Positions 3,968 to 64,000 of a stretch of 64,000 nt of DNA are shown here, one piece after another. A program made the position numbers and the translations under genes. The stretch spans positions 832,001 to 896,000 of the forward strand of contig OZ240219.1 of NCBI GenBank assembly GCA_965197645.1. Reading direction: 5' to 3'. The notes beneath the pieces were generated by a model that had not been told where the DNA came from, ran no database searches, and saw nothing but the letters and a program-made list of their open reading frames with translations. Numbering within the stretch: the stretch's first letter is position 1; each line of letters starts with the position of its first letter. Source of the DNA: Dehalococcoidia bacterium (lineage in GTDB: Bacteria > Chloroflexota > Dehalococcoidia > Plut-88900).

Positions 3968-4749
3968 ATGTCGAAGAGGTCGTAGACCGGTTCCGGGAAA
4001 GGGTTCACTCCCAAATCGCCCTAGTGCCCGAGGGTATTGAACGCTACCGCGTCTCTACTCCCTTCAGGTTCGATGATGGAGACCATCTGTCTATCGTACT
4101 GAAACGGGATATCGGCGACTGGTATCTGTCCGACGAAGGCGCAACTTTCATGCATCTGACCTATGATATGGACGAACAGGACTTTCTACGTGGCAACCGC
4201 CAGACCATTATCGAGAATTCACTCTCGATGTTCGGGGTCAACGACAACGAAGGTGAACTCAAGTTAGTCGTTTCCGACGAGGGTTACGGGGATGCTCTGT
4301 ACAGCTTCGTCCAAGCGTTGCTCAAGATCAGCGACGTCACCTTTCTAAGCAGGGAAATCCCGCAGACTACCTTCAAGGACGACTGCCGTGAACTCATAAA
4401 GGACGCTGTGCCCGAGAGAAATCTGCACCCACATTGGCACGATCCGGTACGTGACCCGGAAGGCAAGTACGTCGTGACCTATAGGATCAACAGGCCAGCC
4501 AGACCACTTTTCGTCTACCCTCTGCCTAATGACGACCACACTAGGGACGCCAATATCGCCCTTCAGTGTTTTCAAGCGTGGGAGATGGAGTTTACTTCTG
4601 TTGGAATCTTTTATGACCAGACCCAGATAAACCGTAAGGTTCTAGCCCGGTTCACCGATGTCTGCGATAGGCAATTCTCGAGCTTGGCAACCAACAAGGA
4701 ACGCATAGCCCAATACCTTCGACAAGAAAACGGTGCCGGGACCATTTAA
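3964..4749 (+). CDS. DUF1828-like domain protein
   Basis: YRVSTPFRFDDGDHLSI...WYLSDEGAT...FVQALLKISD resembles the DUF1828 N-domain. Confidence 0.7.
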   Translation: MNVEEVVDRFRERVHSQIALVPEGIERYRVSTPFRFDDGDHLSIVLKRDIGDWYLSDEGATFMHLTYDMDEQDFLRGNRQTIIENSLSMFGVNDNEGELKLVVSDEGYGDALYSFVQALLKISDVTFLSREIPQTTFKDDCRELIKDAVPERNLHPHWHDPVRDPEGKYVVTYRINRPARPLFVYPLPNDDHTRDANIALQCFQAWEMEFTSVGIFYDQTQINRKVLARFTDVCDRQFSSLATNKERIAQYLRQENGAGTI

Positions 4750-4794
4750 TGTTTCGAGCTGATTTAGCGATAAATCAGGATTCGCCCGCACAAG

Positions 4795-6142
<1,348 letters not shown>

Positions 6143-52988: not shown

Positions 52989-54167
52989 ATGGACTTTCAC
53001 TTCACGCAAGAAGAACAACATTTCCGAATGGACGTGAGAGACCTCCTCGAGGCCGAGCTGCCGCATGACTGGGAAGGCGCCGACGAGTTCGGCAGGACCA
53101 ATGACGTCGCGATGGACCGGCACATGCGTCAGAAGCTGATCGAGCGCGATTGGCTGACCATGTCCTGGCCCAAAGAGTACGGAGGCCAGGACGCATCCCA
53201 CGTGAAACAGGCCATCTTCTCCGAGGAGATGAGCTATCATCGTGCGCCGGGCATGGACGGGTCCGGCCTTCATCTCCTGGCGCCCGCCCTGATGCATCAC
53301 GGCACCGAGGAGCAAAAGAAGAAGCATCTGGGGCCCATCGCACGCGGAGAGGTCGACTGGTGCCAGGGCTTCAGCGAGCCCGAGTCCGGCTCGGATCTGG
53401 CGTCCCTCAGGACGAAGGCAGAGTTGGACGGGGATGAGTATGTCATAAACGGCCAGAAGATATGGTCCAGCGGCGCCCACATGGCGGACTGGATTTTCGT
53501 CCTGGCTCGCACAGACCCCGACGCGCCCAAGCACCGGGGGATCACCTACTTCCTGGCCGATATGAAGACGCCCGGGATAACGGTGAAGCCGATAATCAAT
53601 CTGATCGGCGACCACCACTTCAACGAGATCTTCTTCGACGACGTCAGGGTGCCTGCCTCCAACATCGTGGGGGAGCTGAACCGGGGCTGGTACGTGGCCA
53701 TGACCACCCTCAACTTCGAGAGGGACGGGACATCCTACACCGCCAGGGCCCGAAAGGCCCTGGACGAGCTGGTCCCCTACGTCAAAGAGACCAGTTTCAA
53801 CGGCAGGCGTCTTTCGGACGACCCCGGTGTGAGGAACAAGCTAGCGGAGCTGGTCCTGGAGGTGGAGGTGAGCCGTCTGCTTGCCTATCGCATGGCGTGG
53901 CTGGTGGACAGGGGCGAGGTGCCGACCTATCAGGCCTCCACTACCAAGCTGGTCAGCACGGAGCTGCTTCTCCGGGTGGCCAACGCGGGCATGCAGATCC
54001 TGGGACTGTCGGGCCAGCTGGTGGAAGGGGACAAATGGGCGCCGTTGAGAGGCCGGTTCCACCGCATGTATTTGTGGAGCATCAGCGATCCGATAGCCGG
54101 CGGAACATCGGAGATACAGCGCAACATACTCGCTACACGCGGGCTGAGCCTGCCTAAAAGCACGTAG
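52989..54167 (+). CDS. Acyl-CoA dehydrogenase, alpha-type subunit no. 4
   Basis: WCQGFSEPESGSDLASL and AGGTSEIQR motifs. Confidence 0.93.
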   Translation: MDFHFTQEEQHFRMDVRDLLEAELPHDWEGADEFGRTNDVAMDRHMRQKLIERDWLTMSWPKEYGGQDASHVKQAIFSEEMSYHRAPGMDGSGLHLLAPALMHHGTEEQKKKHLGPIARGEVDWCQGFSEPESGSDLASLRTKAELDGDEYVINGQKIWSSGAHMADWIFVLARTDPDAPKHRGITYFLADMKTPGITVKPIINLIGDHHFNEIFFDDVRVPASNIVGELNRGWYVAMTTLNFERDGTSYTARARKALDELVPYVKETSFNGRRLSDDPGVRNKLAELVLEVEVSRLLAYRMAWLVDRGEVPTYQASTTKLVSTELLLRVANAGMQILGLSGQLVEGDKWAPLRGRFHRMYLWSISDPIAGGTSEIQRNILATRGLSLPKST

Positions 54168-54180
54168 CTGGAGAGATGTC

Positions 54181-55359
54181 ATGGAATTCCGATTCACGAC
54201 CGAGGAGGAGCAGTTCAGGGGGGACCTCAAGGGGTTTCTGAAACAGGAGCTGCCCGAGGATTGGCGCTATGGCGTCATAGAGTCGTCCGAGGAAGACGTA
54301 GAGCTGGACAGGACCATGCGAAGGAAGCTGGCCCGGAAGGGCTGGCTGACCATGGGATGGCCCAAGGAGTACGGCGGACAGGACGCATCTCCCATCACCC
54401 AGTTCATCTTCAACGAGGAGATGGCCTACCATCGCGCTCCGGGCCGGGACGTCTCCGGCATCGGCATGCTGGGACCCACCCTCATGGTCCACGGCAGCGA
54501 GGAGCAGAAACGCAAGTACCTGGGTGACATCGCCCGTGGCGAGATCAACTGGTGCCAGGGCTTCAGCGAGCCCGGTTCAGGTTCCGACCTGGCATCCCTT
54601 CAGACCCGGGCCGACGAGGATGGCGACGATTACGTCATCAATGGACAGAAGATATGGACCAGCGGCGCACACCATGCCGATAGGTTCTTCATGCTCGCCC
54701 GCACCGATACCGAAGCTCCCAAGCACAGGGGCATCACCTTCTTCCTGGGTGATATGAAACAGCCCGGCATCGAGATACGTCCCATAGTCAGCATGACCGG
54801 TCGCCACAGTTTCAACGAGGTCTTCTTCGACGATGTGCGGGTATCCAAGAGAGACGTGGTGGGCGAGACGAATAGGGGTTGGTACGTGGCCATGACCCTG
54901 CTGGGATTCGAAAGGTCCATCGTCGAGTATCCTGCCGCCGCTCGAAGGGCGTTGGAAGAGCTGACCGACTTCGCCAGGGACACCCGGCGCAACGGCTCGG
55001 CCCTGATAGACGATGCCGGCGTGCGCAACAAGCTGGCGGAGATGGCGATAGAGGTGGACGTGGCCCGGCTGCTCTGCTACCGCGTGGCCTGGTTGTCCAG
55101 CCGGGGCGGTGTTCCCGACTCCGAAGGCTCCATGGCCAAGTCCTTTAGCACGGAGCTGATGCGCCGGTTGGGCCAGACCGGCATGGAGGTCATGGGCCTG
55201 TACGGCCAGCTGGGCAAGGGTTCCAAGTACGCCCCGTTGCAGGGAGGGTTCCGGCACGTCTATTTGGAGAGCGTGGGGCTCTGCATCGCCGGCGGCACGT
55301 CGGAAATTCAACGACACGTCATAGCCACCCGGGGACTGGGGCTGCCCCGGACGGGGTGA
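54181..55359 (+). CDS. Acyl-CoA dehydrogenase, alpha-type subunit no. 5
   Basis: WCQGFSEPGSGSDLASL and AGGTSEIQR motifs. Confidence 0.93.
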   Translation: MEFRFTTEEEQFRGDLKGFLKQELPEDWRYGVIESSEEDVELDRTMRRKLARKGWLTMGWPKEYGGQDASPITQFIFNEEMAYHRAPGRDVSGIGMLGPTLMVHGSEEQKRKYLGDIARGEINWCQGFSEPGSGSDLASLQTRADEDGDDYVINGQKIWTSGAHHADRFFMLARTDTEAPKHRGITFFLGDMKQPGIEIRPIVSMTGRHSFNEVFFDDVRVSKRDVVGETNRGWYVAMTLLGFERSIVEYPAAARRALEELTDFARDTRRNGSALIDDAGVRNKLAEMAIEVDVARLLCYRVAWLSSRGGVPDSEGSMAKSFSTELMRRLGQTGMEVMGLYGQLGKGSKYAPLQGGFRHVYLESVGLCIAGGTSEIQRHVIATRGLGLPRTG

Positions 55360-55533
55360 GGCACCGGGCGTAACGGTGTCGTCGGTCAGGCCAAATCATC
55401 ATCAATCGAGGTAGAGATATGAATGGGTGTGTGGTATCCTACCGAACGGCTTGAGGAAGGCCCCAACAAGAGTGTAATCCAAGACCGAATCACGCATTGC
55501 TAACGGCAACCAGGCAAACAAGGAGGTGTGGTA

Positions 55534-56667
55534 ATGGACCTAGGTCTTAGCGAAGAACAAGAGATGTTGAAGAGGACGGCTCGAGAGCTTCTGGAACGAG
55601 AGTGCCCCAAGACCCTGGTTAGGGACATGGAGGAGGACGATAAGGGATACTCCCCCGAGCTTTGGAAGCAGTTTGCCGATTCGGGATTCCTGGGGCTTCC
55701 CTTCCCAGAGCAGTACGGCGGGACCGGGTTCAGCTTCGTAGACCTGGCGATCCTGCTGGAGGAGTTCGGTAGGGCCCTTGTGCCTGGCCCCTACCTGTAT
55801 AACGTGGCCCTATCGGGCATGGCGATAGCCGATGCGGGCACCGAGGAGCAGAAGCAGGAGCATCTGCCCAAGATAGCCAGTGGCGAGTCCATCTTCACCT
55901 TCGCTCTTACCGAGCCCAGCGGCCGGTGGGACGCCGAGGGAGTGGGCTTGAGTGCGACAGCGGACGGCGATGACTTCATCCTCAACGGCGTGAAGCTGTT
56001 CATCCCCGACGCCCACGTCTCCGACCAGATGCTGGTTGTGGCCCGCACCAGCGAGTCAGACGACCCCAAAGAGGGCATCACCGTTTTTATCGTCGATACC
56101 AAGAGCGAGGGAATCAACACAGAGGTGCTCCAGACCATCGCCTCGGACAAGCAGTGCGAGGTCAACCTGGATAACGTCAGGGTGCCCCGCAGCAGCGTTC
56201 TCGGCGAGGTGGACGAGGGTTGGTCCATCGTGGAGCAGGCCCTGCGCCGCGGCGCCGTGGCCAAGTGCGCCGAGATGGTGGGCAACTCGGAGCAGGTGCT
56301 GGACATAACCGTCGAGTACGCCAAGAACCGGATACAGTTCGGGCGACCCATTGGCAGCTTCCAGGCGATCCAACACCACTGCGCCAACATGGCCACCGAC
56401 GTCGATGGCTCCCGCTTCATCACATACCAGGCCGCATGGAAGCTCTCTGAAGGGCTGCCCTGCGACAAGGAGATATCCATGGCCAAGGCTTGGGTGAGCG
56501 AGGCGTGCCGTAGGGTGGACGGGCTTGGCCACCAGGTCCACGGCGGTATCGGGTTCACCAAAGAGCACGATATGCAGCTCTTCTTCCGCCGGGCCAAGCA
56601 GGCCGAGCTCTTCTTCGGGGACGCCGACTTCCATCGAGAGAAGGTGGCCCAGGAGATCGGGCTGTAA
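55534..56667 (+). CDS. Acyl-CoA dehydrogenase, beta-type subunit (FadE27/28/33-like)
   Basis: ALTEP, RIQFGRPIGSFQAIQH and QVHGGIGFT present; C-terminal LFFGDADFHR lacks the GT.E catalytic motif. Confidence 0.9.
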   Translation: MDLGLSEEQEMLKRTARELLERECPKTLVRDMEEDDKGYSPELWKQFADSGFLGLPFPEQYGGTGFSFVDLAILLEEFGRALVPGPYLYNVALSGMAIADAGTEEQKQEHLPKIASGESIFTFALTEPSGRWDAEGVGLSATADGDDFILNGVKLFIPDAHVSDQMLVVARTSESDDPKEGITVFIVDTKSEGINTEVLQTIASDKQCEVNLDNVRVPRSSVLGEVDEGWSIVEQALRRGAVAKCAEMVGNSEQVLDITVEYAKNRIQFGRPIGSFQAIQHHCANMATDVDGSRFITYQAAWKLSEGLPCDKEISMAKAWVSEACRRVDGLGHQVHGGIGFTKEHDMQLFFRRAKQAELFFGDADFHREKVAQEIGL

Positions 56668-56726: not shown

Positions 56727-56808
56727 CTCTGAAACCGGGGGTTGGGCTCCCCTGCAACGGCTCGTGGATATGATACCGGCGCAAACGGAGCCTCAAGTAG
56801 GCCAAGGC

Positions 56809-57150
56809 ATGGACTGCATCTTCTGTAAGATAGCCGGCGGCGAGGTCCAGGGCGACGTTCTCCACCGGGACGACAAAGCCCTGGTGCTCAGAGACATCAA
56901 CCCCCAGGCACCCACCCACCTCCTCGTCCTTCCCATTGAGCACCTGGGGACGGTAATGGAGATAAACGAGTCCAACGCTTCCCTGATGGGGCATATGGTA
57001 CTGCTGGCCAATCGTATGGCCCGGCAGGAGGGCCTGGCCGACAAGGGCTACCGGCTGGCCATCAACTGCGGCGAAGAGGGTGGGCAGACAGTGGGGCACC
57101 TGCACATGCACGTTCTCGGCGGTAGGCAGCTCTCCGGACAGCTGGGCTGA
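56809..57150 (+). CDS. Histidine triad nucleotide-binding protein (HinT-like)
   Basis: DCIFCKI, DINPQAPTH and GGQTV.HLHMHVLGGR motifs. Confidence 0.95.
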   Translation: MDCIFCKIAGGEVQGDVLHRDDKALVLRDINPQAPTHLLVLPIEHLGTVMEINESNASLMGHMVLLANRMARQEGLADKGYRLAINCGEEGGQTVGHLHMHVLGGRQLSGQLG

Positions 57151-57187: not shown

Positions 57188-57784
57188 ATGGTCTCCGACC
57201 CCGAGGCGCTGAGAGAGGCGATTAGCCACCTTCCCAGGGGCTTGACGGCCCACGTCGACCGCGTGGTGGACGTCGCCGTAGAGGTGGGACAACGCTTTGA
57301 GATCGATCCCGCCAGGGTGAAGGCTGCTGCTCTGCTCCACGATTTCGCTCGGCTGGTCAAGGGAGACAGGCTGCTGGAGCTTGCCGAGGAGTACGGTGTG
57401 CCCGTCACTTCCTTGGACGAGAGGATGCCGGTGTTCCTCCACGGCCCCGTCGGCGCTGAGATGGTTCGTAGAGAGCTACACGTAGAGGACGAAGAGGTGC
57501 TGCAAGCCATACGGCTTCACACCATCGGGGGCGCAGGCATGGGGCCGGTGGCGAAAGTGGTCTACCTGGCTGACAAGATCGAGCCCTCCAAGGACTCACG
57601 CTACCCATTCAACCCCGAGGTTAGGGAGCTGGCCAAGGTGGACATGGATAGGGCGATACTCAAGTTCGTCGACAACGACATATCCCGCTACATCGGTACG
57701 GGGGGTTACGTCCACCCGGCCACCATTGCGATGAGGAACGACCTTCTGACCGGCCTCGAAGCAGGGCAGGCCCTGCACCCATAA
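57188..57784 (+). CDS. yqeK: YqeK-like HD-domain Ap4A hydrolase
   Basis: H..RV, AALLHDFAR, LHGPVGA, AIRLHT.G and YLADKIEP motifs. Confidence 0.88.
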   Translation: MVSDPEALREAISHLPRGLTAHVDRVVDVAVEVGQRFEIDPARVKAAALLHDFARLVKGDRLLELAEEYGVPVTSLDERMPVFLHGPVGAEMVRRELHVEDEEVLQAIRLHTIGGAGMGPVAKVVYLADKIEPSKDSRYPFNPEVRELAKVDMDRAILKFVDNDISRYIGTGGYVHPATIAMRNDLLTGLEAGQALHP

Positions 57785-57928: not shown

Positions 57929-57971
57929 GTGACATTATCTCGTTGACACCATAGAACATATATTCTATCTT
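57929..57971 (+). promoter_or_regulatory. Promoter/operator 1 of the head-packaging module (LexA-box-like palindrome between -35 and -10)
   Basis: GTGACA(57929), TTGACA(57943)-N17-TATCTT(57966); palindrome ATAGAA-catata-TTCTAT at 57951-57968. Confidence 0.75.
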
Positions 57972-58087
57972 TCGCCTATCACATTGGATTGCTCGGCCTG
58001 CTGGTTTGCATTGGAGAGAATGGAATGGAGAGGTTCCCCATTGTCATACAGCCGTGGTCGAGATTTGTCCAACGACGGGAGGAAAGC

Positions 58088-58264
58088 ATGGGCATGTTCC
58101 CCAACGCACTGAAGAAGGGTCACTGGAAGGTGGCCGCCCTGTGTCTGCTCATCGGGATGCTGCGGGTGGCGATGAGACTCTCGCGGGAGGCGCTACTGAA
58201 ACTGGTCCGTGCTGCGAGACCGGCCAACGCATCGGAGAGGAGATCGCATGTCGGAAGGCGATAG
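58088..58264 (+). CDS. Small hypothetical protein with a hydrophobic segment
   Basis: GGAGG RBS before ATG 58088; overlaps the next gene; first ORF after promoter 1. Confidence 0.5.
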   Translation: MGMFPNALKKGHWKVAALCLLIGMLRVAMRLSREALLKLVRAARPANASERRSHVGRR

Positions 58265-58595
58265 AGGAGATCGTCGCGACGGCCGAAAGACCGGCGCGCA
58301 CGACTTTTACGCCTCCGCGGTGAGCGAGGCCGAGCTATTGCGGCTCGATGAGGCCCAGGAGATGCAGGGCCTGGACGGCGAGATCGCCCTGTTGAGGACC
58401 AGGCTGCTCCGGCTGGCCGAAAACCAGCCGGAGGACACCGCTCTGCTCTTCCGGGGCCTGGAGCTGTTGGTCAAGGCCGTCGGTGCCAAGTACCGCCTAT
58501 CGTCCAAGTCCACAGAGGACCTGAGTACGGCGATAGAAGAGGTGTTGAAGAGCATCGGTGGGGCCATGGGACTGGAGGGTTTCAGTGGGAACTGA
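58248..58595 (+). CDS. Hypothetical helical protein, putative terminase small subunit
   Basis: GAGGAG RBS; KTGAHDFYA resembles the NA.KHG.Y motif of some TerS proteins; LDGEIALLR helix; lies upstream of TerL. Confidence 0.55.
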   Translation: MSEGDRGDRRDGRKTGAHDFYASAVSEAELLRLDEAQEMQGLDGEIALLRTRLLRLAENQPEDTALLFRGLELLVKAVGAKYRLSSKSTEDLSTAIEEVLKSIGGAMGLEGFSGN

Positions 58596-58815
58596 CGGAC
58601 TGAAGCAGACCATCGCCAGATTCAAGAAGGCTCGAAGCGGGCCTGTGAAGGCAGGTGTCAACCTCAACCCCGATTCGGCCTTCGAGGCGATGCTGGACAT
58701 TCGCCTTCAGGAGCTTCGACGCCAGGTGGGAGAAGTGAGGAGCCGGGTCAACGGCCTGTTCTTCTTCGTACTCGGTGCGGCGATCGTGCAGGTTGCTCTC
58801 GGCTTCTTCGCTTAG
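58585..58815 (+). CDS. Small coiled-coil protein with a C-terminal TM helix
   Basis: GGAGG then GTG 58585; LQELRRQVGEVRSRVNG followed by LFFFVLGAAIVQVALGFFA. Confidence 0.65.
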   Translation: MGTDGLKQTIARFKKARSGPVKAGVNLNPDSAFEAMLDIRLQELRRQVGEVRSRVNGLFFFVLGAAIVQVALGFFA

Positions 58816-58820
58816 CTCAA

Positions 58821-60214
58821 ATGCCCATCAAGCATCGACTGCGGCCCTATCAGGCGGAGATCGGAGCTGCCGTACTGGACAGCGTTCTCAACAAGAGAGG
58901 GCTGACCTTTTCGGTCATCATCTCCAGGCAGGGAGGCAAGAACGAGCTTTCGGCCCAGCTGGAGGTGCTGCTCCTGACCCTGTTCATGAACATCGGTGGC
59001 AGCGCCGTGAAGGCGTCGCCTACTTTCAAGCCCCAGACGGTCAACAGCATCCTGAGGCTCAAGGAGCGGCTCGACGATGCGGGCTACGGAGGGATATGGG
59101 TGTCCGAGATGAGCTACATGGTGAGGCTAAACAGGGCACGGCAGATGTTCTTCAGCGCCGATTCGTCCAGCCACGTCGTGGGCGCCACCGCCGACGTCCT
59201 GCTGGAGATGGACGAAAGCCAGGACATCTCCAAGGAGAAGTACAACAAGGAGTTCAAGCCGATGGGGGCGGCCACCAACGTGACCACGGTCCACTTCGGC
59301 ACCGCCTGGGACGACTCAACCCTCCTGGAGGAGGTGAAGCAGTCCAACCTGGAGCTGGAACGCAAGGACCACGTACGCAGGCACTTCGAGTTCGACTGGC
59401 AGGAGGTCGCCAAACATGTGCCCGAGTACGGGAGGTACGTCGAAGGCGAACGGCAGCGGCTGGGGAAGGACCACCCACTGTTTCTGACCCAGTACGGTCT
59501 GTTGCCGCTTCACGGAGGCGGAGGTTTCCTGAACGCTGCTCAGCGAGCCCAGCTGCAGGGCGATCACCATCGCCTAAGCAGGCCGGAGGATGGAAAGGTC
59601 TACGTAGCCGGCATCGATCTGGCGGGAGAGGCCGAAGAGGGCCGGGACGCCGAGCTTCGGGCCATCAAGCCCAGGCAGGACTCGACGGTGGTGACCATCG
59701 GTGAGCTGGACTACTCCCAGGCGGCGCCCCCGGCGGATGAGCCGGCGATCAGAATAGTGGAGCATTACTGGTGGACTGGCCAACCCCACACCGAACTCTA
59801 CTCTCGCCTCGTTGACCTGCTGAAGACGGTGTGGCGATGCAGGCGTGTCGTTGTGGACGCCACGGGTGTCGGGCAGGGGTGAGCAGCTTTCTGGTCCGGG
59901 CCCTGGGATCCACCGTCGTCTCTCCCTTCGTGTTTACGTCCCAAAGCAAGTCGAAGCTGGGGTTCGATCTGCTGGCGGCCGTCAACTCGGGAAGGATGAA
60001 GATGTACCGTCCCGATGGCACGGAGGAGTACCGGCAGTTCTGGACGGAGGTTGAGAGGGCCAAGAGCTTCTACCGGGCCAATCAGACCGTCAACTTCTAC
60101 GTCGACCCCAGCGATGGTGATGACGACTTCCTGATGAGCATGGCACTGCTGGCCCAGTCGGCTGGCTACAGGCGCAGGAAGGCTTCGGGCAGGCTACGGA
60201 AGGGCTACGAGTGA
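58821..60214 (+). CDS. Terminase large subunit, interrupted by a -1 frame change at 59876-59882
   Basis: Walker A SRQGGKNE, Walker B LLEMDESQD, FGTA, nuclease motifs YVAGIDLAG, DST and VVVDATGVG. After TGA 59880 the -1 frame continues VSSFL...FT..SKS.LG...GDDDFLMSMAL. Confidence 0.85.
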
Positions 60215-60288
60215 TGCCGGAGGGCTGAAAGGCGAAGACGAAGCAGCGAAGAGGTTAGCCGGAGTTATGGATTGCGCAGGAGAAGCAG

Positions 60289-60633
60289 ATGGATTTGCGG
60301 GAGTTCAGGGATCTGGTCGTCGAGGGCGTGGAAAGCACGGAACATTCCGCTCCCTCTCAGCCCGACCCAGGCCGAGACAGCCGCCCGGAGTTCGTTAGAT
60401 ACCGGGACGTCGGCTGCGAGGTATCGGAGTCGTGTCTCAAGTGTCCGTTGCCCCAGTGCCGCTACGACGATCCCGGCTGGCTGCGCAGGCAAATCAAGGA
60501 GAAGCGGGACCGGCAGGTGATAGAGGCCCACGAAGGAGAGGGGCTGGCGCCATCGGAGCTGGCGAAGAGATTTGGAGTGAGCCGCCGCACCATCCACCGG
60601 ATACTCAAAGCGCACAAAGGTCAAAGAAGATAG
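60289..60633 (+). CDS. Cys4-motif plus C-terminal HTH DNA-binding protein (Mor-like HTH)
   Basis: YRD.GCEVSESCLKCPLPQCRYD followed by RDRQV...ELAKRFGVSRRTIHRIL. Confidence 0.8.
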   Translation: MDLREFRDLVVEGVESTEHSAPSQPDPGRDSRPEFVRYRDVGCEVSESCLKCPLPQCRYDDPGWLRRQIKEKRDRQVIEAHEGEGLAPSELAKRFGVSRRTIHRILKAHKGQRR

Positions 60634-60654
60634 TAAAGATTTGGAGATATCACC

Positions 60655-61977
60655 ATGGAAAACATGACATTGCCGCAGCAGATCGAGAGGATGGACCGGG
60701 ACAGGCTGAGGATCTACGCCGAAAACCTGGACTTCTACAATGGCCTCCAGTGGCCCGGCAGGGCCCGCCGGGGCGAGCGGCGCCTCACCTTCAACTACTC
60801 CAAGGCCTTCATCGATAAGATCACCTCATATCTCATGGCCGACCTCACCATTTCCGTCGAACCCCTGGACAGCACCGAGGAGGCGGCTCGCAAGGCCGGG
60901 GAGATCGACGAGGTCATACAGCAGGTCTACGAGGCCAACCATCTCCAGCAGCTCGATTTCGATACGGAGCTGGACACCGCCATCCTGGGCGACGGGGTCT
61001 ACAAGGTCACCTGGGACCCCCGGGAGCAGCAGGTGAGGGTCTCCGCGCCCGACGTGCAGGGCATCTACGTGTGGTGGATTGGAGACGATGTCACTCGCGT
61101 CTGGAGGGTCGCCAGCCGGTACAAGCTCTCGGCCGAGGAGGTCGAGCTTCTCTACGGCGTCAAGAACGCAGCCTCCGGGTTGAACGGCAGGAACAGGGAA
61201 TCGATGGTTGTGGAGGTGTGGACCGCCACCGGCCTGGAGATATGGATCGACAACGCGCTCCACGAGCAACGACCCAACCCCTACGGCTTCATCCCCTTCA
61301 TCGTGTTTCCCAACGTGAGGGAGCCAAAGAAATTCTGGGGCGTCTCCGACATCCCGGCCATCATCGAACCGTCCAGGGAGCTGAACCGGGCCTTCTCCCA
61401 GCTATCGATGATCCTGGAGCTGTCCGGCAACCCGATAGCCGTGCTGGAGAACGTCGAGGACGCCCAGGACATAGCGGTGCAGCCGGGGGCCGTCTGGGAG
61501 TTGCCGGAGCGGGCCCGGGCCTATCTGCTGGACCTGCTTCAGGGTGGCGGAGTAAAGCTTCACACCGATTTCATAGGCCTGGTGTACAGGGCCATTCACG
61601 ATCTATCGGAATCGCCCCGAACCAGCTTCGGCGATAACAGCCAGGGGCTGTCCGGCGTCGCGCTGGAGATGGAGCTGAATCCCCTGATCCAGAAGATCCG
61701 CCGCAAGCGACTGGTCCGGACGGCCGTTTATCAGCGCCGCATAGCGATGATCCTCAAGATACTGGAGCAGAAGCGGGGACTGAGCTTCGGTAACGTGCGT
61801 TCCCGCATCGTCTGGGGGCCGATACTGCCCCAGGACAGGGGCAAGCTGGCCCAGGAGGAAGAGCTGCTGGTGCGATCGGGCATCCACAGCCGCCGCCGCT
61901 CCATGGAAAACCTGGGCGTCCCCGATCCTGAAGCAGAGCTGACGCGGATCAGGGAGGAGGACCCTGCTGGCGCCTAG
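60655..61977 (+). CDS. Phage portal protein (SPP1 gp6-like)
   Basis: DFY.G.Q, RLTFNY.K..IDK, NPYGFIPF..FPN, G.SDI, SGVALE, W..ILP.D and LGV.DPEAEL.RI motifs. Confidence 0.9.
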   Translation: MENMTLPQQIERMDRDRLRIYAENLDFYNGLQWPGRARRGERRLTFNYSKAFIDKITSYLMADLTISVEPLDSTEEAARKAGEIDEVIQQVYEANHLQQLDFDTELDTAILGDGVYKVTWDPREQQVRVSAPDVQGIYVWWIGDDVTRVWRVASRYKLSAEEVELLYGVKNAASGLNGRNRESMVVEVWTATGLEIWIDNALHEQRPNPYGFIPFIVFPNVREPKKFWGVSDIPAIIEPSRELNRAFSQLSMILELSGNPIAVLENVEDAQDIAVQPGAVWELPERARAYLLDLLQGGGVKLHTDFIGLVYRAIHDLSESPRTSFGDNSQGLSGVALEMELNPLIQKIRRKRLVRTAVYQRRIAMILKILEQKRGLSFGNVRSRIVWGPILPQDRGKLAQEEELLVRSGIHSRRRSMENLGVPDPEAELTRIREEDPAGA

Positions 61978-62798
61978 TCTCGTTTCCTGGCCAGATACGT
62001 ATAGTAGTTGCAGGCGGCGAAGAAGACGCCTCGGTCCGCGTTGGAGCGCTGGTCCTCCAGCCAGGCCTCCACCTGTTCCGAGGGCAGGACGCCGGCGTCG
62101 GCCACCATCGGGGCGTAGATCTCGGCGAAGTTCTTCCAGAACCTACCGCTCCCGACCTCCGAGTAGACGTTGGGCGTGACGCTTATCAGGTCCAGCCCAA
62201 CCTCTCCCAGCAGCTGCGGCATCTCCCGCATTACCAGGGGGTTACTGACCATCACCCCTATCATCCCCTCCTCCATCTTCCTCCCCAGCTCCCTGTCCGA
62301 GCTGCCGAAGGAGAGGGAGGCGTAGTCCCCATCGAATATGGCAATCGTGCCGCCGGTCCTGACCAGCCGGGACATCTCCTTGAGCACGGCCGCCGGTTCC
62401 GTGACGTGGCTTATCAGCGTATGGGCCATGGCTGCATCGAAGCCGGCGTCCGCCAGGCCGGTGGAGTGAGCATCTCCGATCCGAAACTCGATTTTCCCGC
62501 CGATTCCCTCCTCGTCGGCCAGACGTCGGGCGACCTCTATGAAGATGGGACTGTGGTCAACCCCGACGATCCGACCCTGAAAAGCGGGTCGTTGAGCCAG
62601 CCTCCGGGCACCAACTCCCGTCCCGCATCCCATGTCCAACACGCTGGCGTGGGGATCGAGGGCGATGGCTTCCAGGTAATCGTTCATCCACCGGATGTAG
62701 TTGGGGTCCCGACCTCGGAACTCCAGCCGCTCGATCATCGAGTTTAACGTGGAGTCGTCCAGGTCGGTGGCGTATTGAAAGACATCTCGAGGGGTCAT
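61974..62798 (-). CDS. Class I SAM-dependent methyltransferase (UbiE/Methyltransf_11-like)
   Basis: VLDMGCGTG, GVD.S, GDAH, FD..MAHTL.SHV and R.GG motifs; GGGAGG RBS; stop overlaps the portal stop (CTAG). Confidence 0.92.
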   Translation of the reverse strand: MTPRDVFQYATDLDDSTLNSMIERLEFRGRDPNYIRWMNDYLEAIALDPHASVLDMGCGTGVGARRLAQRPAFQGRIVGVDHSPIFIEVARRLADEEGIGGKIEFRIGDAHSTGLADAGFDAAMAHTLISHVTEPAAVLKEMSRLVRTGGTIAIFDGDYASLSFGSSDRELGRKMEEGMIGVMVSNPLVMREMPQLLGEVGLDLISVTPNVYSEVGSGRFWKNFAEIYAPMVADAGVLPSEQVEAWLEDQRSNADRGVFFAACNYYTYLARKRD

Positions 62799-62857
62799 GG
62801 CTACCTCCCGGTCCAATTATAACCCTGCGATTCGTCGTCGTTGGAAGGTCGGGCGTT

Positions 62858-62901
62858 GTGACACCAACCGGTTGACTGTATTAGAACTGATATTCTACTC
62901 T
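62858..62901 (+). promoter_or_regulatory. Promoter/operator 2 of the head-packaging module
   Basis: GTGACA(62858), TTGACT(62872)-N18-TACTCT(62896); palindrome TAGAA-ctgata-TTCTA at 62882-62897. Confidence 0.72.
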
Positions 62902-62940
62902 GGCCACACGTAAATCAGCCCTATTTCACGGGAGGTGTCT

Positions 62941-63378
62941 ATGGCCGAGGATACGATGGAGGAAGTGGTGGAACAGACCGAGACGGATGTAGAGGACGCT
63001 CCGGGCTTCCAGGCCGATACCGGTACAAGCGTAGAGGAGCTGGAGGGCCAGGTCAGCCGGCTTCGCGCCGACCTGGAAAAGCGGGATGAGGAGCTGGCTT
63101 CGTTGAGAGAGCAGATGACCAACTCCGCGGCCCGTTACAGGACAGCCATACTGTCCGGCGCACCCGAGGTGCCCGAGGAGCTGGTCCGCGGAGACACGGT
63201 GGAGGAGCTGGACGCATCCCTGGTCCAGGCCAGGGAGATTGTAGAGAAGGTCGCCCAACGGCTCGGTTCCCAGGTGGCATCCGAGCAGGTGCCCGCAGGC
63301 TCGCCGCCTCGTAGGCCGCCGGACCTGGTCGCAATGTCGCCCCACGAAAAGATCCTGTACGCACTGCAGAGATCGTAA
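62941..63378 (+). CDS. Putative capsid scaffolding protein
   Basis: Acidic N-terminus, coiled coil, PEELV.G.T.EE, VPAG.PPR...MSP.EKI; immediately before the capsid gene; GGAGG RBS. Confidence 0.7.
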   Translation: MAEDTMEEVVEQTETDVEDAPGFQADTGTSVEELEGQVSRLRADLEKRDEELASLREQMTNSAARYRTAILSGAPEVPEELVRGDTVEELDASLVQAREIVEKVAQRLGSQVASEQVPAGSPPRRPPDLVAMSPHEKILYALQRS

Positions 63379-63422
63379 ACACACAGCAGCCGGAGTTACC
63401 GAGTAGCGAAAGGAGCTAAGAC

Positions 63423-64000
63423 ATGGCTTTAACTTTAGCGGAGGGCGCAAAGCTCTCAAACGACGTACTAGTTGCCGGGGTAATCGAGACCATCATCAAC
63501 GAAAGTCCGGTCCTTCAGGCTATGCCCTTCATCGAGATAGTGGGCAACAGCCTGACCTACAACCGGGAGAACGCCGCACCTTCAGTGAGCTTCTACAACG
63601 TGGGCGACACCTGGACAGAGTCCACCCCCACCTTTACCCAGGTGAGCGCCACGCTGAAGATACTGGGCGGAGATGCCGACGTGGACAACTACCTCTCCTC
63701 CACTCGCAACAACGTGCAGGACCTGGAAGCGGCGGTGGTCCAGCTCAAGGCCAAGGCCCTTCAGCAGAAGTTCGACGACACCTTCATCAACGGTGAAGTA
63801 ACCACCGATGCCAAGTCCTTCGACGGCATCGAAGAGCTGACAGTCACCAAGCAAATAGTGAGCATGGGCGCCAACGGCGGCACCCTCACCCTCGAGAAGC
63901 TGGACGAGCTGATAGATAGGGTGAAAGGCGGCAAACCCGATATGCTCATCATGAGCAAGCGCAGCCGCAGGAAGCTCTCCTCGCTGGCCCGGGCCGCAGG
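63423..64000 (+). CDS. Major capsid protein (HK97-fold), truncated by the window end; absent from the ORF track
   Basis: AAGGAG then ATG 63423: MALTLAEGAKLSNDVLVAGVIETIINESPVLQAMPF.EI.GNSLTYNRE...LKILGGDADVD...FINGE...FDGI...LDELID; open to the edge. Confidence 0.88.
   Translation, partial: MALTLAEGAKLSNDVLVAGVIETIINESPVLQAMPFIEIVGNSLTYNRENAAPSVSFYNVGDTWTESTPTFTQVSATLKILGGDADVDNYLSSTRNNVQDLEAAVVQLKAKALQQKFDDTFINGEVTTDAKSFDGIEELTVTKQIVSMGANGGTLTLEKLDELIDRVKGGKPDMLIMSKRSRRKLSSLARAA

Follow-up and report, generated by a model that had tools for sequence, protein, structure and literature searches.

Organization of the phage-type module

The stretch of DNA analysed here, referred to as the window, comprises 64,000 nucleotides (nt) of a 3.21-Mb single-contig genome (G000:C1:832001-896000) whose host was confirmed to be a member of the Dehalococcoidia. 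The right end of the window carries a chromosomal module of phage-type packaging and head genes, which is the subject of this report. The whole module covers about 9.4 kb (window-equivalent positions 57943-67345), and about 3.3 kb of it lies beyond the window end, where coordinates are given in locus L002 (L002 position = window position minus 56999). Its core, about ten genes, is divided between two blocks. Block 1 encodes a candidate small terminase (TerS), a small membrane-type open reading frame (ORF), the large terminase (TerL), a Cys-rich helix-turn-helix (HTH) protein predicted to be a regulator, and a portal, and block 2 encodes a scaffold, a major capsid protein, an SU10-type head-tail adaptor, a 663-amino-acid (aa) tail protein and a 70-aa ORF. 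An initial annotation of the window had described small ORFs, TerL, the Cys-HTH gene, portal, methyltransferase, scaffold and capsid genes running on from the housekeeping genes hinT-yqeK, and this run was found as described (Table 1). The annotation had also suggested looking for neck, tail and lysis genes beyond the window; the adaptor, the tail protein and the 70-aa ORF were found there, and a lysis gene was not recognised.

Family searches of the encoded proteins found no integrase, recombinase or replication gene in the module or its flanks. The longest word common to both flanks is 8 nt, with a mean of 9.2 in shuffles, and no att site was detected. The GC content is 0.60-0.63 within the cluster and 0.60-0.645 outside, which amounts to no shift. 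The integrase, replication genes, att duplication and compositional shift that had been reported as missing are thus missing by all of these measures. Elsewhere in the genome, no other Terminase_6C match and no other HK97-type capsid (two Pfam families) was observed.

The opposite-strand methyltransferase noted earlier between the portal and scaffold genes is present; none of the 20 relatives' loci has one at this junction, and it is an insert outside the module proper. Three small ORFs had been proposed ahead of TerL. Two of them (58209-58595 and 58558-58815) are kept in relatives and were retained, whereas the 91-aa ORF was not, with no tblastn match in the 20 relatives' loci and no Pfam or PHROG match. 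Farther to the right, an insertion sequence-type DDE transposase (rve_3, weak match) is located 7 kb from the module (L002 17019-17915), and beyond it lies a SLOG cluster4 / LOG-like protein (L002 19208-19720).

Table 1. Features of the module, its flanks and related loci (window positions unless a locus is named)
Feature	Position	Strand	Remarks
Block 1 promoter-like site	57943-57971	+	TTGACA, 17 nt, TATCTT; overlaps palindrome
Block 1 palindrome TAGAACATATATTCTA	57952-57967		LexA-box-like operator (predicted)
ORF, 91 aa	57989-58264	+	coding status uncertain
ORF, 128 aa as listed	58209-58595	+	candidate small terminase
ORF, 85 aa as listed	58558-58815	+	hydrophobic C-terminal stretch
Large terminase TerL	58821-60214	+	two frames, 58821-59882 and 59876-60214
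Cys-rich HTH protein	60289-60633	+	HTH_23, Sigma70_r4; phrog_836 late transcriptional activator E 6e-6
Portal, 440 aa	60655-61977	+	intact; PF05133 E 7e-17; phrog_64 E 3e-34
Class I S-adenosylmethionine (SAM) methyltransferase	61974-62816	-	inserted at portal/scaffold junction
Block 2 promoter-like TTGACT and palindrome TAGAACTGATATTCTA	62872-62897	+	palindrome 62882-62897
Acidic coiled-coil protein, 147 aa	62935-63378	+	candidate scaffold; weak phrog_1793 match E 0.005
Major capsid protein, 296 aa	63423 to window-equivalent 64313	+	HK97 fold, epsilon15 gp7 / SU10 type
Adaptor	L002 7406-8044		PF24175 SU10_adaptor E 4e-11
Tail protein, 663 aa	L002 8046-10037		phrog_1887 'tail protein', colinear, E 2e-5
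ORF, 70 aa	L002 10134-10346 (window-equivalent 67133-67345)		directly after tail-protein gene
Three tandem acyl-CoA dehydrogenase paralogues (392, 392, 379 aa)	52989-56667		directly left of hinT
HIT gene (hinT)	56764-57150		left flank of module
HD/yqeK-like gene	57188-57784		left flank, between HIT and module
Major facilitator superfamily transporter and InhA-like protein	right flank after 70-aa ORF		host genes
Extra TerL cassettes, genus g4, G003	L222 9801-11529; L223 9125-11072; L224 9594-11137
Extra TerL cassette, genus g4, G006	L225 9123-10487
Xer-like tyrosine recombinase, 291 aa	L083 4530-5402; L095 6200-7075; L118 1-1146		Phage_integrase and SAM_1

Structural and packaging proteins

The portal assignment was borne out by PF05133 and phrog_64. 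The capsid protein matches phrog_212 (E 1e-50), NF045672 MCP_gp7_epsi_15 (E 1e-61) and PF17236 SU10_MCP, and the capsid half of the earlier scaffold-capsid proposal stands on the first two of these. The scaffold half holds as well, but its family match is weak; the position of the candidate ahead of the capsid gene is conserved in relatives. No prohead protease was found in the module and no toxin, lysin or defence domain in the core genes (Pfam, PHROG, NCBIfam). NCBIfam supplied no names for the small ORFs, TerL, the portal or the tail protein.

Predicted folds were needed for TerL and the tail protein because sequence profiles gave little. The 663-aa protein was modelled with a predicted local distance difference test score (pLDDT) of 74; its N-terminal part is a predicted beta-propeller like those of lectins and sialidases, while the later, hub-like part of the model resembles phage tail, gpD or VgrG-type proteins. 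A sequence-profile search with this protein gave nothing useful. It cannot be named a nozzle, as its PDB matches are generic beta-propellers. The 70-aa ORF is kept in six relatives (G035, G025, G021, G037, G016 and G017) and in five contigs of the IMG/VR viral database, whereas no copy was detected in genus g4. Family searches gave no match for it, and neither Pfam nor PHROGs supported a role as an oligonucleotide-binding (OB)-fold spike.

The likely start of the 128-aa ORF is the ATG at 58248, which is preceded by GGAGAGGAG, and the ORF is present in 14 of the 20 relatives' loci at a coverage of at least 70%. It has no family match (Pfam, PHROG, NCBIfam). In Atlas it falls with unnamed Chloroflexota clusters (0.97), the nearest named entry being the T5 small terminase (0.81). 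The ORF earlier called TerS-like is therefore a TerS candidate by position plus this one weak Atlas lead. Most relatives' loci conserve residues about 36-82 of the 85-aa ORF; Pfam and PHROG searches gave no family match, and a function in the membrane or in lysis is speculative.

The HTH protein carries the motif GC-x6-C-x2-CPLP-x-C with the HTH C-terminal to it. Cys43, Cys52 and Cys57 are invariant and Cys49 was observed in eight of nine aligned relatives, in agreement with its earlier description as a four-cysteine HTH protein. By its domains, it appears to be a regulator encoded inside the module.

The large terminase and its frameshift

TerL occupies two frames because one base is missing from a G-run at about 59872-59880. 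The run in GGGCAGGGGTGAGC has four G, and five would restore the frame (...ATGVGQGVSSFLV...). In relatives, TerL was found to be a single frame of 455-475 aa. The gene had been correctly identified as TerL, as the orthologue fold indicates, but its split in G000 had been missed. The G000 protein has no Pfam or PHROG match and its sequence profile reaches only E about 0.09 against the PDB; Terminase_6C is matched by the TerL of 5 of 12 relatives. A model of the intact orthologue in G002 (pLDDT 83) finds the HK97, Sf6, D6E and T4 gp17 terminases as its best PDB matches (E about 1e-15). The predicted chain combines an N-terminal ATPase with Walker motifs and a C-terminal RNase H-like nuclease.

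In strains that are about 97-98% alike and come from two other studies, one extra base is present (G after 59870 or A after 59872) and the TerL frame is intact. Either the copy of G000 was disabled very recently, or the deletion is a shared sequencing error. Given the 1-base deletion, this copy may be newly disabled.

Genomes of genus g4 possess one to three extra intact cassettes of a small ORF and TerL with about 80% DNA identity to the module copy. These cassettes are separate from the portal and capsid genes, which are single, and every cassette is preceded by an operator-like palindrome, as in the module. In G006, about 27 partial matches to the nuclease part of TerL were also observed in ORFs of 165-521 aa. 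For G007-G010 of this genus, the amino acid identity is 0.79 for TerL, 0.42 for the small ORF and 0.95 for the portal, the first two evolving faster.

Promoters and a LexA-type operator

Both blocks start with TTGAC(A/T), 4-5 bases and TAGAAC-N4-ATTCTA (57943-57967 and 62872-62897), and the matching promoters noted in the initial annotation are therefore real as sequence features. The pattern TAGAA-N6-TTCTA occurs at two sites in the 3.21-Mb genome, both of them at the blocks, with 0.65 expected. AGAAC-N4-RTTCT was found at four sites, namely the two blocks, lexA and a DNA-repair radical-SAM gene (TIGR03916). The lexA box is located at G000:C1:2879416, 32 nt ahead of lexA, and the operator core shares GAAC-N4-GTTC with it. 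In all six genomes checked, GAAC-N4-GTTC is present just upstream of lexA. The operator is thus of the organism's own LexA-box type and lies inside the promoter, as in an SOS regulon. LexA is the likely switch because the operator core equals the box ahead of lexA, and we infer LexA control of both blocks. The host control proposed earlier gains support from these predicted sites.

The box of the radical-SAM gene, GTAGAACGTATGTTCTC, lies at G000:C1:2227248 (L227 about 3249), 21 nt ahead of the gene (L227:1885-3228, minus strand). The match of this gene to TIGR03916, 'DNA modification/repair radical SAM', has an E value of 6e-81 and is below the curated cut-off.

Our comparison of 21 relatives' loci gave 28 palindrome matches with at most one mismatch, distributed over 18 loci (shuffles: mean 4.1, maximum 10). 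Twenty-six of them lie at most 700 nt ahead of a block start, including starts at which a portal, HTH or capsid gene has been made first by rearrangement. A similar box is found upstream of the separated block 2 of G008, G016, G017 and G036, and none was found within the thresholds used for that of G037 and G030. The operator was not among the repeats listed by a generic repeat finder, and a promoter scan (2 sites, 1.3 expected) is uninformative alone.

Distribution, synteny and selection

Among Dehalococcoidia genomes at least 90% complete (including the unpublished genome G214), the portal was found in 245 of 401, mostly as a single copy, which agrees with the single-copy presence in most of the class that vertical inheritance had been expected to give. 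It was likewise found, mostly once per genome and with 51-80% identity, in 34 of 41 relatives from 30 families; the capsid and tail-protein genes each occur as a single copy in 30 of the 41. Presence is all-or-none by family: the portal is present in f1 (9/9), f6 (20/23), f16 (31/34), f30 (7/7) and f35 (24/34) and absent from f22 (0/34), f24 (0/11), f29 (0/10) and f32 (0/11). A portal relative is found in at least 577 species genomes, and nearly all of the 80 listed are labelled Dehalococcoidia or Chloroflexota. Outside the class, weaker portal matches were observed in 8 of 134 genomes of a phylum-wide sample. Isolated phages (13 records) reach 21-24% portal identity at best; closest matches in free phages had been named as contrary evidence.

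In G002, the closest complete relative, the capsid gene is followed by no more than a remnant of the 70-aa ORF (L022 5522-5611), and TerL, portal and capsid are intact. In genus g45 of family f41, the 1.5-Mb complete genomes G055 and G119 have truncated portal matches (residues 3-294 with a TAG stop, and 4-276) and G074 has no portal match, while full-length matches were found in the sister genus g70. Genus g45 may be on its way to losing the module. Family f41 also includes complete genomes of 1.7-2.1 Mb in which the portal is intact.

The order of module genes is kept in relatives, with variable inserts at the block junctions, and hinT-yqeK lies within 1-5 kb of the module in 10 of 20 relatives' loci (families f1, f7, f11 and f25). 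The two blocks are 32 kb to 2.9 Mb apart in G017, G016, G037 and G008 and on different contigs in G030 and G036. The separated block 2 is complete in G037, G016 and G008; in G017 the gene for the tail protein is fragmented, and the sequence read in G030 and G036 includes only part of block 2.

The ratio of nonsynonymous to synonymous substitution rates (dN/dS) had been predicted to be well below 1, and pairwise values were found to be 0.06-0.15 for the portal, 0.08-0.15 for the capsid, 0.12-0.21 for the adaptor and 0.13-0.20 for the tail protein. Higher values were observed for the scaffold (0.2-0.34) and for TerL in genus g4 (about 0.3-0.38).

Portal and RpoB trees have their major clades in common. 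Portal and RpoB distances are correlated (Mantel r 0.89, reached by none of 5000 shuffles), and when each family is represented by a single genome, r is 0.53 (73 of 5000 shuffles). Label-shuffled topologies are 832 and 1004 log-likelihood (lnL) units worse for the portal data. On the 38-row RpoB tree, lineages with no portal branch from within portal-bearing ones, so that at least three losses are required. Genome G040 is outside the Mantel comparison, G021, with no rpoB match, is in no RpoB comparison, and G031 is in the trees and the Mantel comparison and outside the approximately unbiased (AU) test described below. The intended outgroup G415, labelled as belonging to the same phylum, grouped with G015 inside the class on the RpoB tree (support 98); this placement reflects either an error of the single-gene tree or a class boundary from which RpoB departs.

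Related contigs in the viral database

IMG/VR holds 393 contigs with this portal, all of them short (4-27 kb). We examined the ten longest available loci and observed the same module in chromosomal gene order with no further phage modules. Since these ten show only the module, many of the contigs may be host genes and not viruses. One of the ten, L083, also encodes a DNA polymerase beta thumb-domain protein. In another, L087, the capsid gene ends after residue 48 and a large serine recombinase (Resolvase, Recombinase and Zn ribbon domains) occupies positions 4020-5873 on the opposite strand; it looks like an intervening element within the capsid gene.

Interpretation and alternative explanations

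We consider it probable that the module encodes an ancient, host-kept and SOS-controlled DNA-packaging particle of podovirus-like type, comparable to a gene transfer agent (GTA) and known here from its genes. Phage structural and packaging genes are present in the chromosome with no genes for replication, integration or excision, and vertical inheritance with purifying selection was observed across the host clade, though strict identity with the RpoB tree is rejected. The marks of a functional or recent prophage (an integrase or recombinase, a repressor, replication and lysis genes, an att duplication and a patchy distribution among strains) were not found, and the module does not appear to be one. 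Distribution, dN/dS, trees and boxes all support the earlier proposal of a vertically inherited, host-controlled packaging system rather than a recent prophage. The congruence with a host marker that this proposal called for holds broadly, by RpoB clades and Mantel correlation, and fails as strict identity.

With no replication, integration or recognisable lysis genes, the gene set is insufficient for a virus. It would suffice to make a head filled with DNA and a very short tail of podovirus-like type. LexA would repress both blocks until DNA damage lifts the repression, and the module's HTH protein may add a second regulatory step. An induced fraction of the cells would then build particles, a headful terminase would package DNA and the particles would be released, with an outcome like that of a gene transfer agent or a PBSX-type particle.

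Several observations weigh against this interpretation. No ejection or fibre proteins were recognised in the module and no recognisable lysis gene was found among its genes. AGAAC-N4-RTTCT is not over-represented genome-wide (four sites, with about 2.5 estimated by composition), reversed-pattern controls gave similar counts in five relatives, and GAAC-N4-GTTC occurs at 34 sites where 40 are expected; only the placement of the operator is informative. The module's HTH protein could be an alternative or second binder of the operator. The exact RpoB topology is rejected by the portal data (delta lnL 44, AU p 0.010 from only 2000 replicates), and the Robinson-Foulds (RF) distance between the two trees is 16 of 34. 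The portal is broken in G014, G015 and G017, although 3 of 34 falls short of the widespread pseudogenisation that had been named as contrary evidence, and G002 has neither the adaptor nor the 663-aa tail gene. TerL is frameshifted in G000 itself. In a comparison with assembled contigs, those from two runs of one sample (X1 and X2) repeat the window exactly over 57929-61069, frameshift included; the sample may be the source of the assembly, so that their agreement is not independent. Finally, in three of the ten IMG/VR contigs a Xer-like recombinase precedes the small-ORF/TerL block by 1.4-2 kb.

This recombinase, together with the serine recombinase inside one capsid gene, the number of IMG/VR contigs with the portal, the non-identical trees and the sporadic weaker relatives in other Chloroflexota classes, speaks for a horizontally spreading family that repeatedly re-inserts beside hinT-yqeK, whether as a satellite of the capsid-forming phage-inducible chromosomal island (cf-PICI) type or as a minimal temperate phage. 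We regard such a family as quite unlikely. The G000 locus has no recombinase, replication gene or att repeat, the contigs are short with chromosomal gene order and no further phage modules in the ten examined, and blocks scattered over the chromosome stay intact. Moreover, presence is all-or-none by family and portal distances follow RpoB, shuffled topologies being 830-1000 lnL units worse. A decaying cryptic prophage remnant with no function is still less credible and in our judgement highly improbable. The TerL frameshift of G000, the broken or trimmed copies in G014, G015, G017 and G002 and the foreign genes inserted between module genes fit decay, but dN/dS values stay well below 1 both between species and between families, most genomes have intact frames and TerL is intact in the nearly identical strains. 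The operator is also kept ahead of the blocks, rearranged ones included, with 26 of 28 matches near block starts.

A different kind of alternative accepts that the module is domesticated and selected and assigns it a role other than gene transfer, such as a PBSX-like SOS killer or suicide particle, an anti-phage decoy or a head donor for islands. All of the conservation evidence fits this equally well. Genus g4 keeps two to four operator-bearing candidate TerS-TerL cassettes away from a single head module, a hint of competing packaging specificities as in satellites, and the lectin- or sialidase-like beta-propeller of the tail protein could serve binding and not delivery. TerL, portal, adaptor and tail protein are nevertheless kept intact together, which argues for DNA-filled, tail-bearing particles, and no toxin, lysin or defence domain occurs in the core genes; we therefore consider a non-transfer role unlikely, though less so than mobility or decay.

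The GTA-like particle that we favour can be extended to a more specific proposal, which we put forward tentatively as somewhat short of an even chance. The module would be the first GTA of the Chloroflexota, independently domesticated and maybe as old as the class, with a podovirus-type particle made from about ten genes. LexA boxes would tie the scattered blocks together, so that DNA damage would turn a subpopulation into donors of chromosomal DNA, and the TerS-TerL cassettes of genus g4 may set different packaging starts.

Comparison with known systems

The definition of gene transfer agents and the Caulobacter case were taken from the accessible part of PMC9632790. The module resembles the RcGTA-type agents of Rhodobacter capsulatus and Caulobacter crescentus in being a set of chromosomal phage head, packaging and tail genes that has no replication or integration genes. 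It also resembles them in its long inheritance with the host, in having parts at separate loci under predicted common control and in a probable link to DNA damage and repair. It differs in that no sequence kinship was shown and the module belongs to another phylum. RcGTA has a long siphovirus-like tail, whereas the epsilon15/SU10-type capsid, SU10 adaptor and single large tail protein of the module point to a podovirus-like short tail. A prohead protease was not found in the module. Control of RcGTA-type agents is by GafA/GafYZ-CtrA or RogA, in contrast to the candidate LexA-type box at each block.

PBSX of Bacillus subtilis is a fixed SOS-inducible particle that packages host DNA and cannot propagate. 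It is large and myovirus-like, has its own repressor and lysis genes and is confined to close relatives. In contrast, the module is about 9 kb with no tail sheath, spans a whole class, and its particle is predicted from the genes alone. In cf-PICIs, the genes for TerS, TerL, portal, capsid and head-tail adaptor form a compact group of about 10 kb with no long tail; these islands are mobile, with an integrase, replication genes and att sites. The module is alike in its compact packaging and head gene set and the absence of a long tail, and unlike in having no integrase, replication genes or att sites and in having its own tail-type protein. The combination that marks cf-PICI satellites, an integrase with a pri-rep module and the use of helper tails, was not found. 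With the SU10 and epsilon15 podophages the module shares the capsid (NF045672, PF17236) and adaptor (PF24175) types, but the nearest isolated phages have 21-24% portal identity and the module has no phage genome context.

A LexA of Dehalococcoides has reportedly been found to bind a box of this kind in a study of 2002. The flanking TA...TA of the operator is common to only some lexA boxes. The Cheo-box core is GAAC-N4-GTTC and the Gram-positive consensus is CGAACRNRYGTTYC, as given in the accessible part of PMC2248561; by this source the operator core equals the Cheo core and is close to CGAACRNRYGTTYC.

As judged from the genome, the module would match a GTA or PBSX-type particle in every visible feature. 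Four departures from known GTAs are apparent, namely the capsid and adaptor type, the very short tail set, the candidate LexA control and the host phylum. Searches of the literature (main texts) on gene transfer agents and prophages of the Dehalococcoidia, including Dehalogenimonas, and the Chloroflexota yielded no description of the module, in line with the earlier statement that no GTA of the Chloroflexota has been characterised. The element in bioRxiv 10.64898/2026.09.15.751708 is, according to the accessible part of that preprint, a different, filamentous one.

Implications

Members of the Dehalococcoidia grow slowly, and hardly any genetic tools exist for them. They are abundant in sediments, aquifers and the deep ocean. 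For virome work, the present findings mean that IMG/VR contigs with this portal may often be host genes. If the proposed interpretation is true, the module would represent an independent GTA-like origin with a short-tailed particle and a simple, testable switch in the LexA boxes, and might provide a natural delivery vehicle for Dehalococcoidia. It would also be a major route, as yet unrecognised, by which these bacteria exchange genes and repair DNA, and would help to ask why cells retain such particles.

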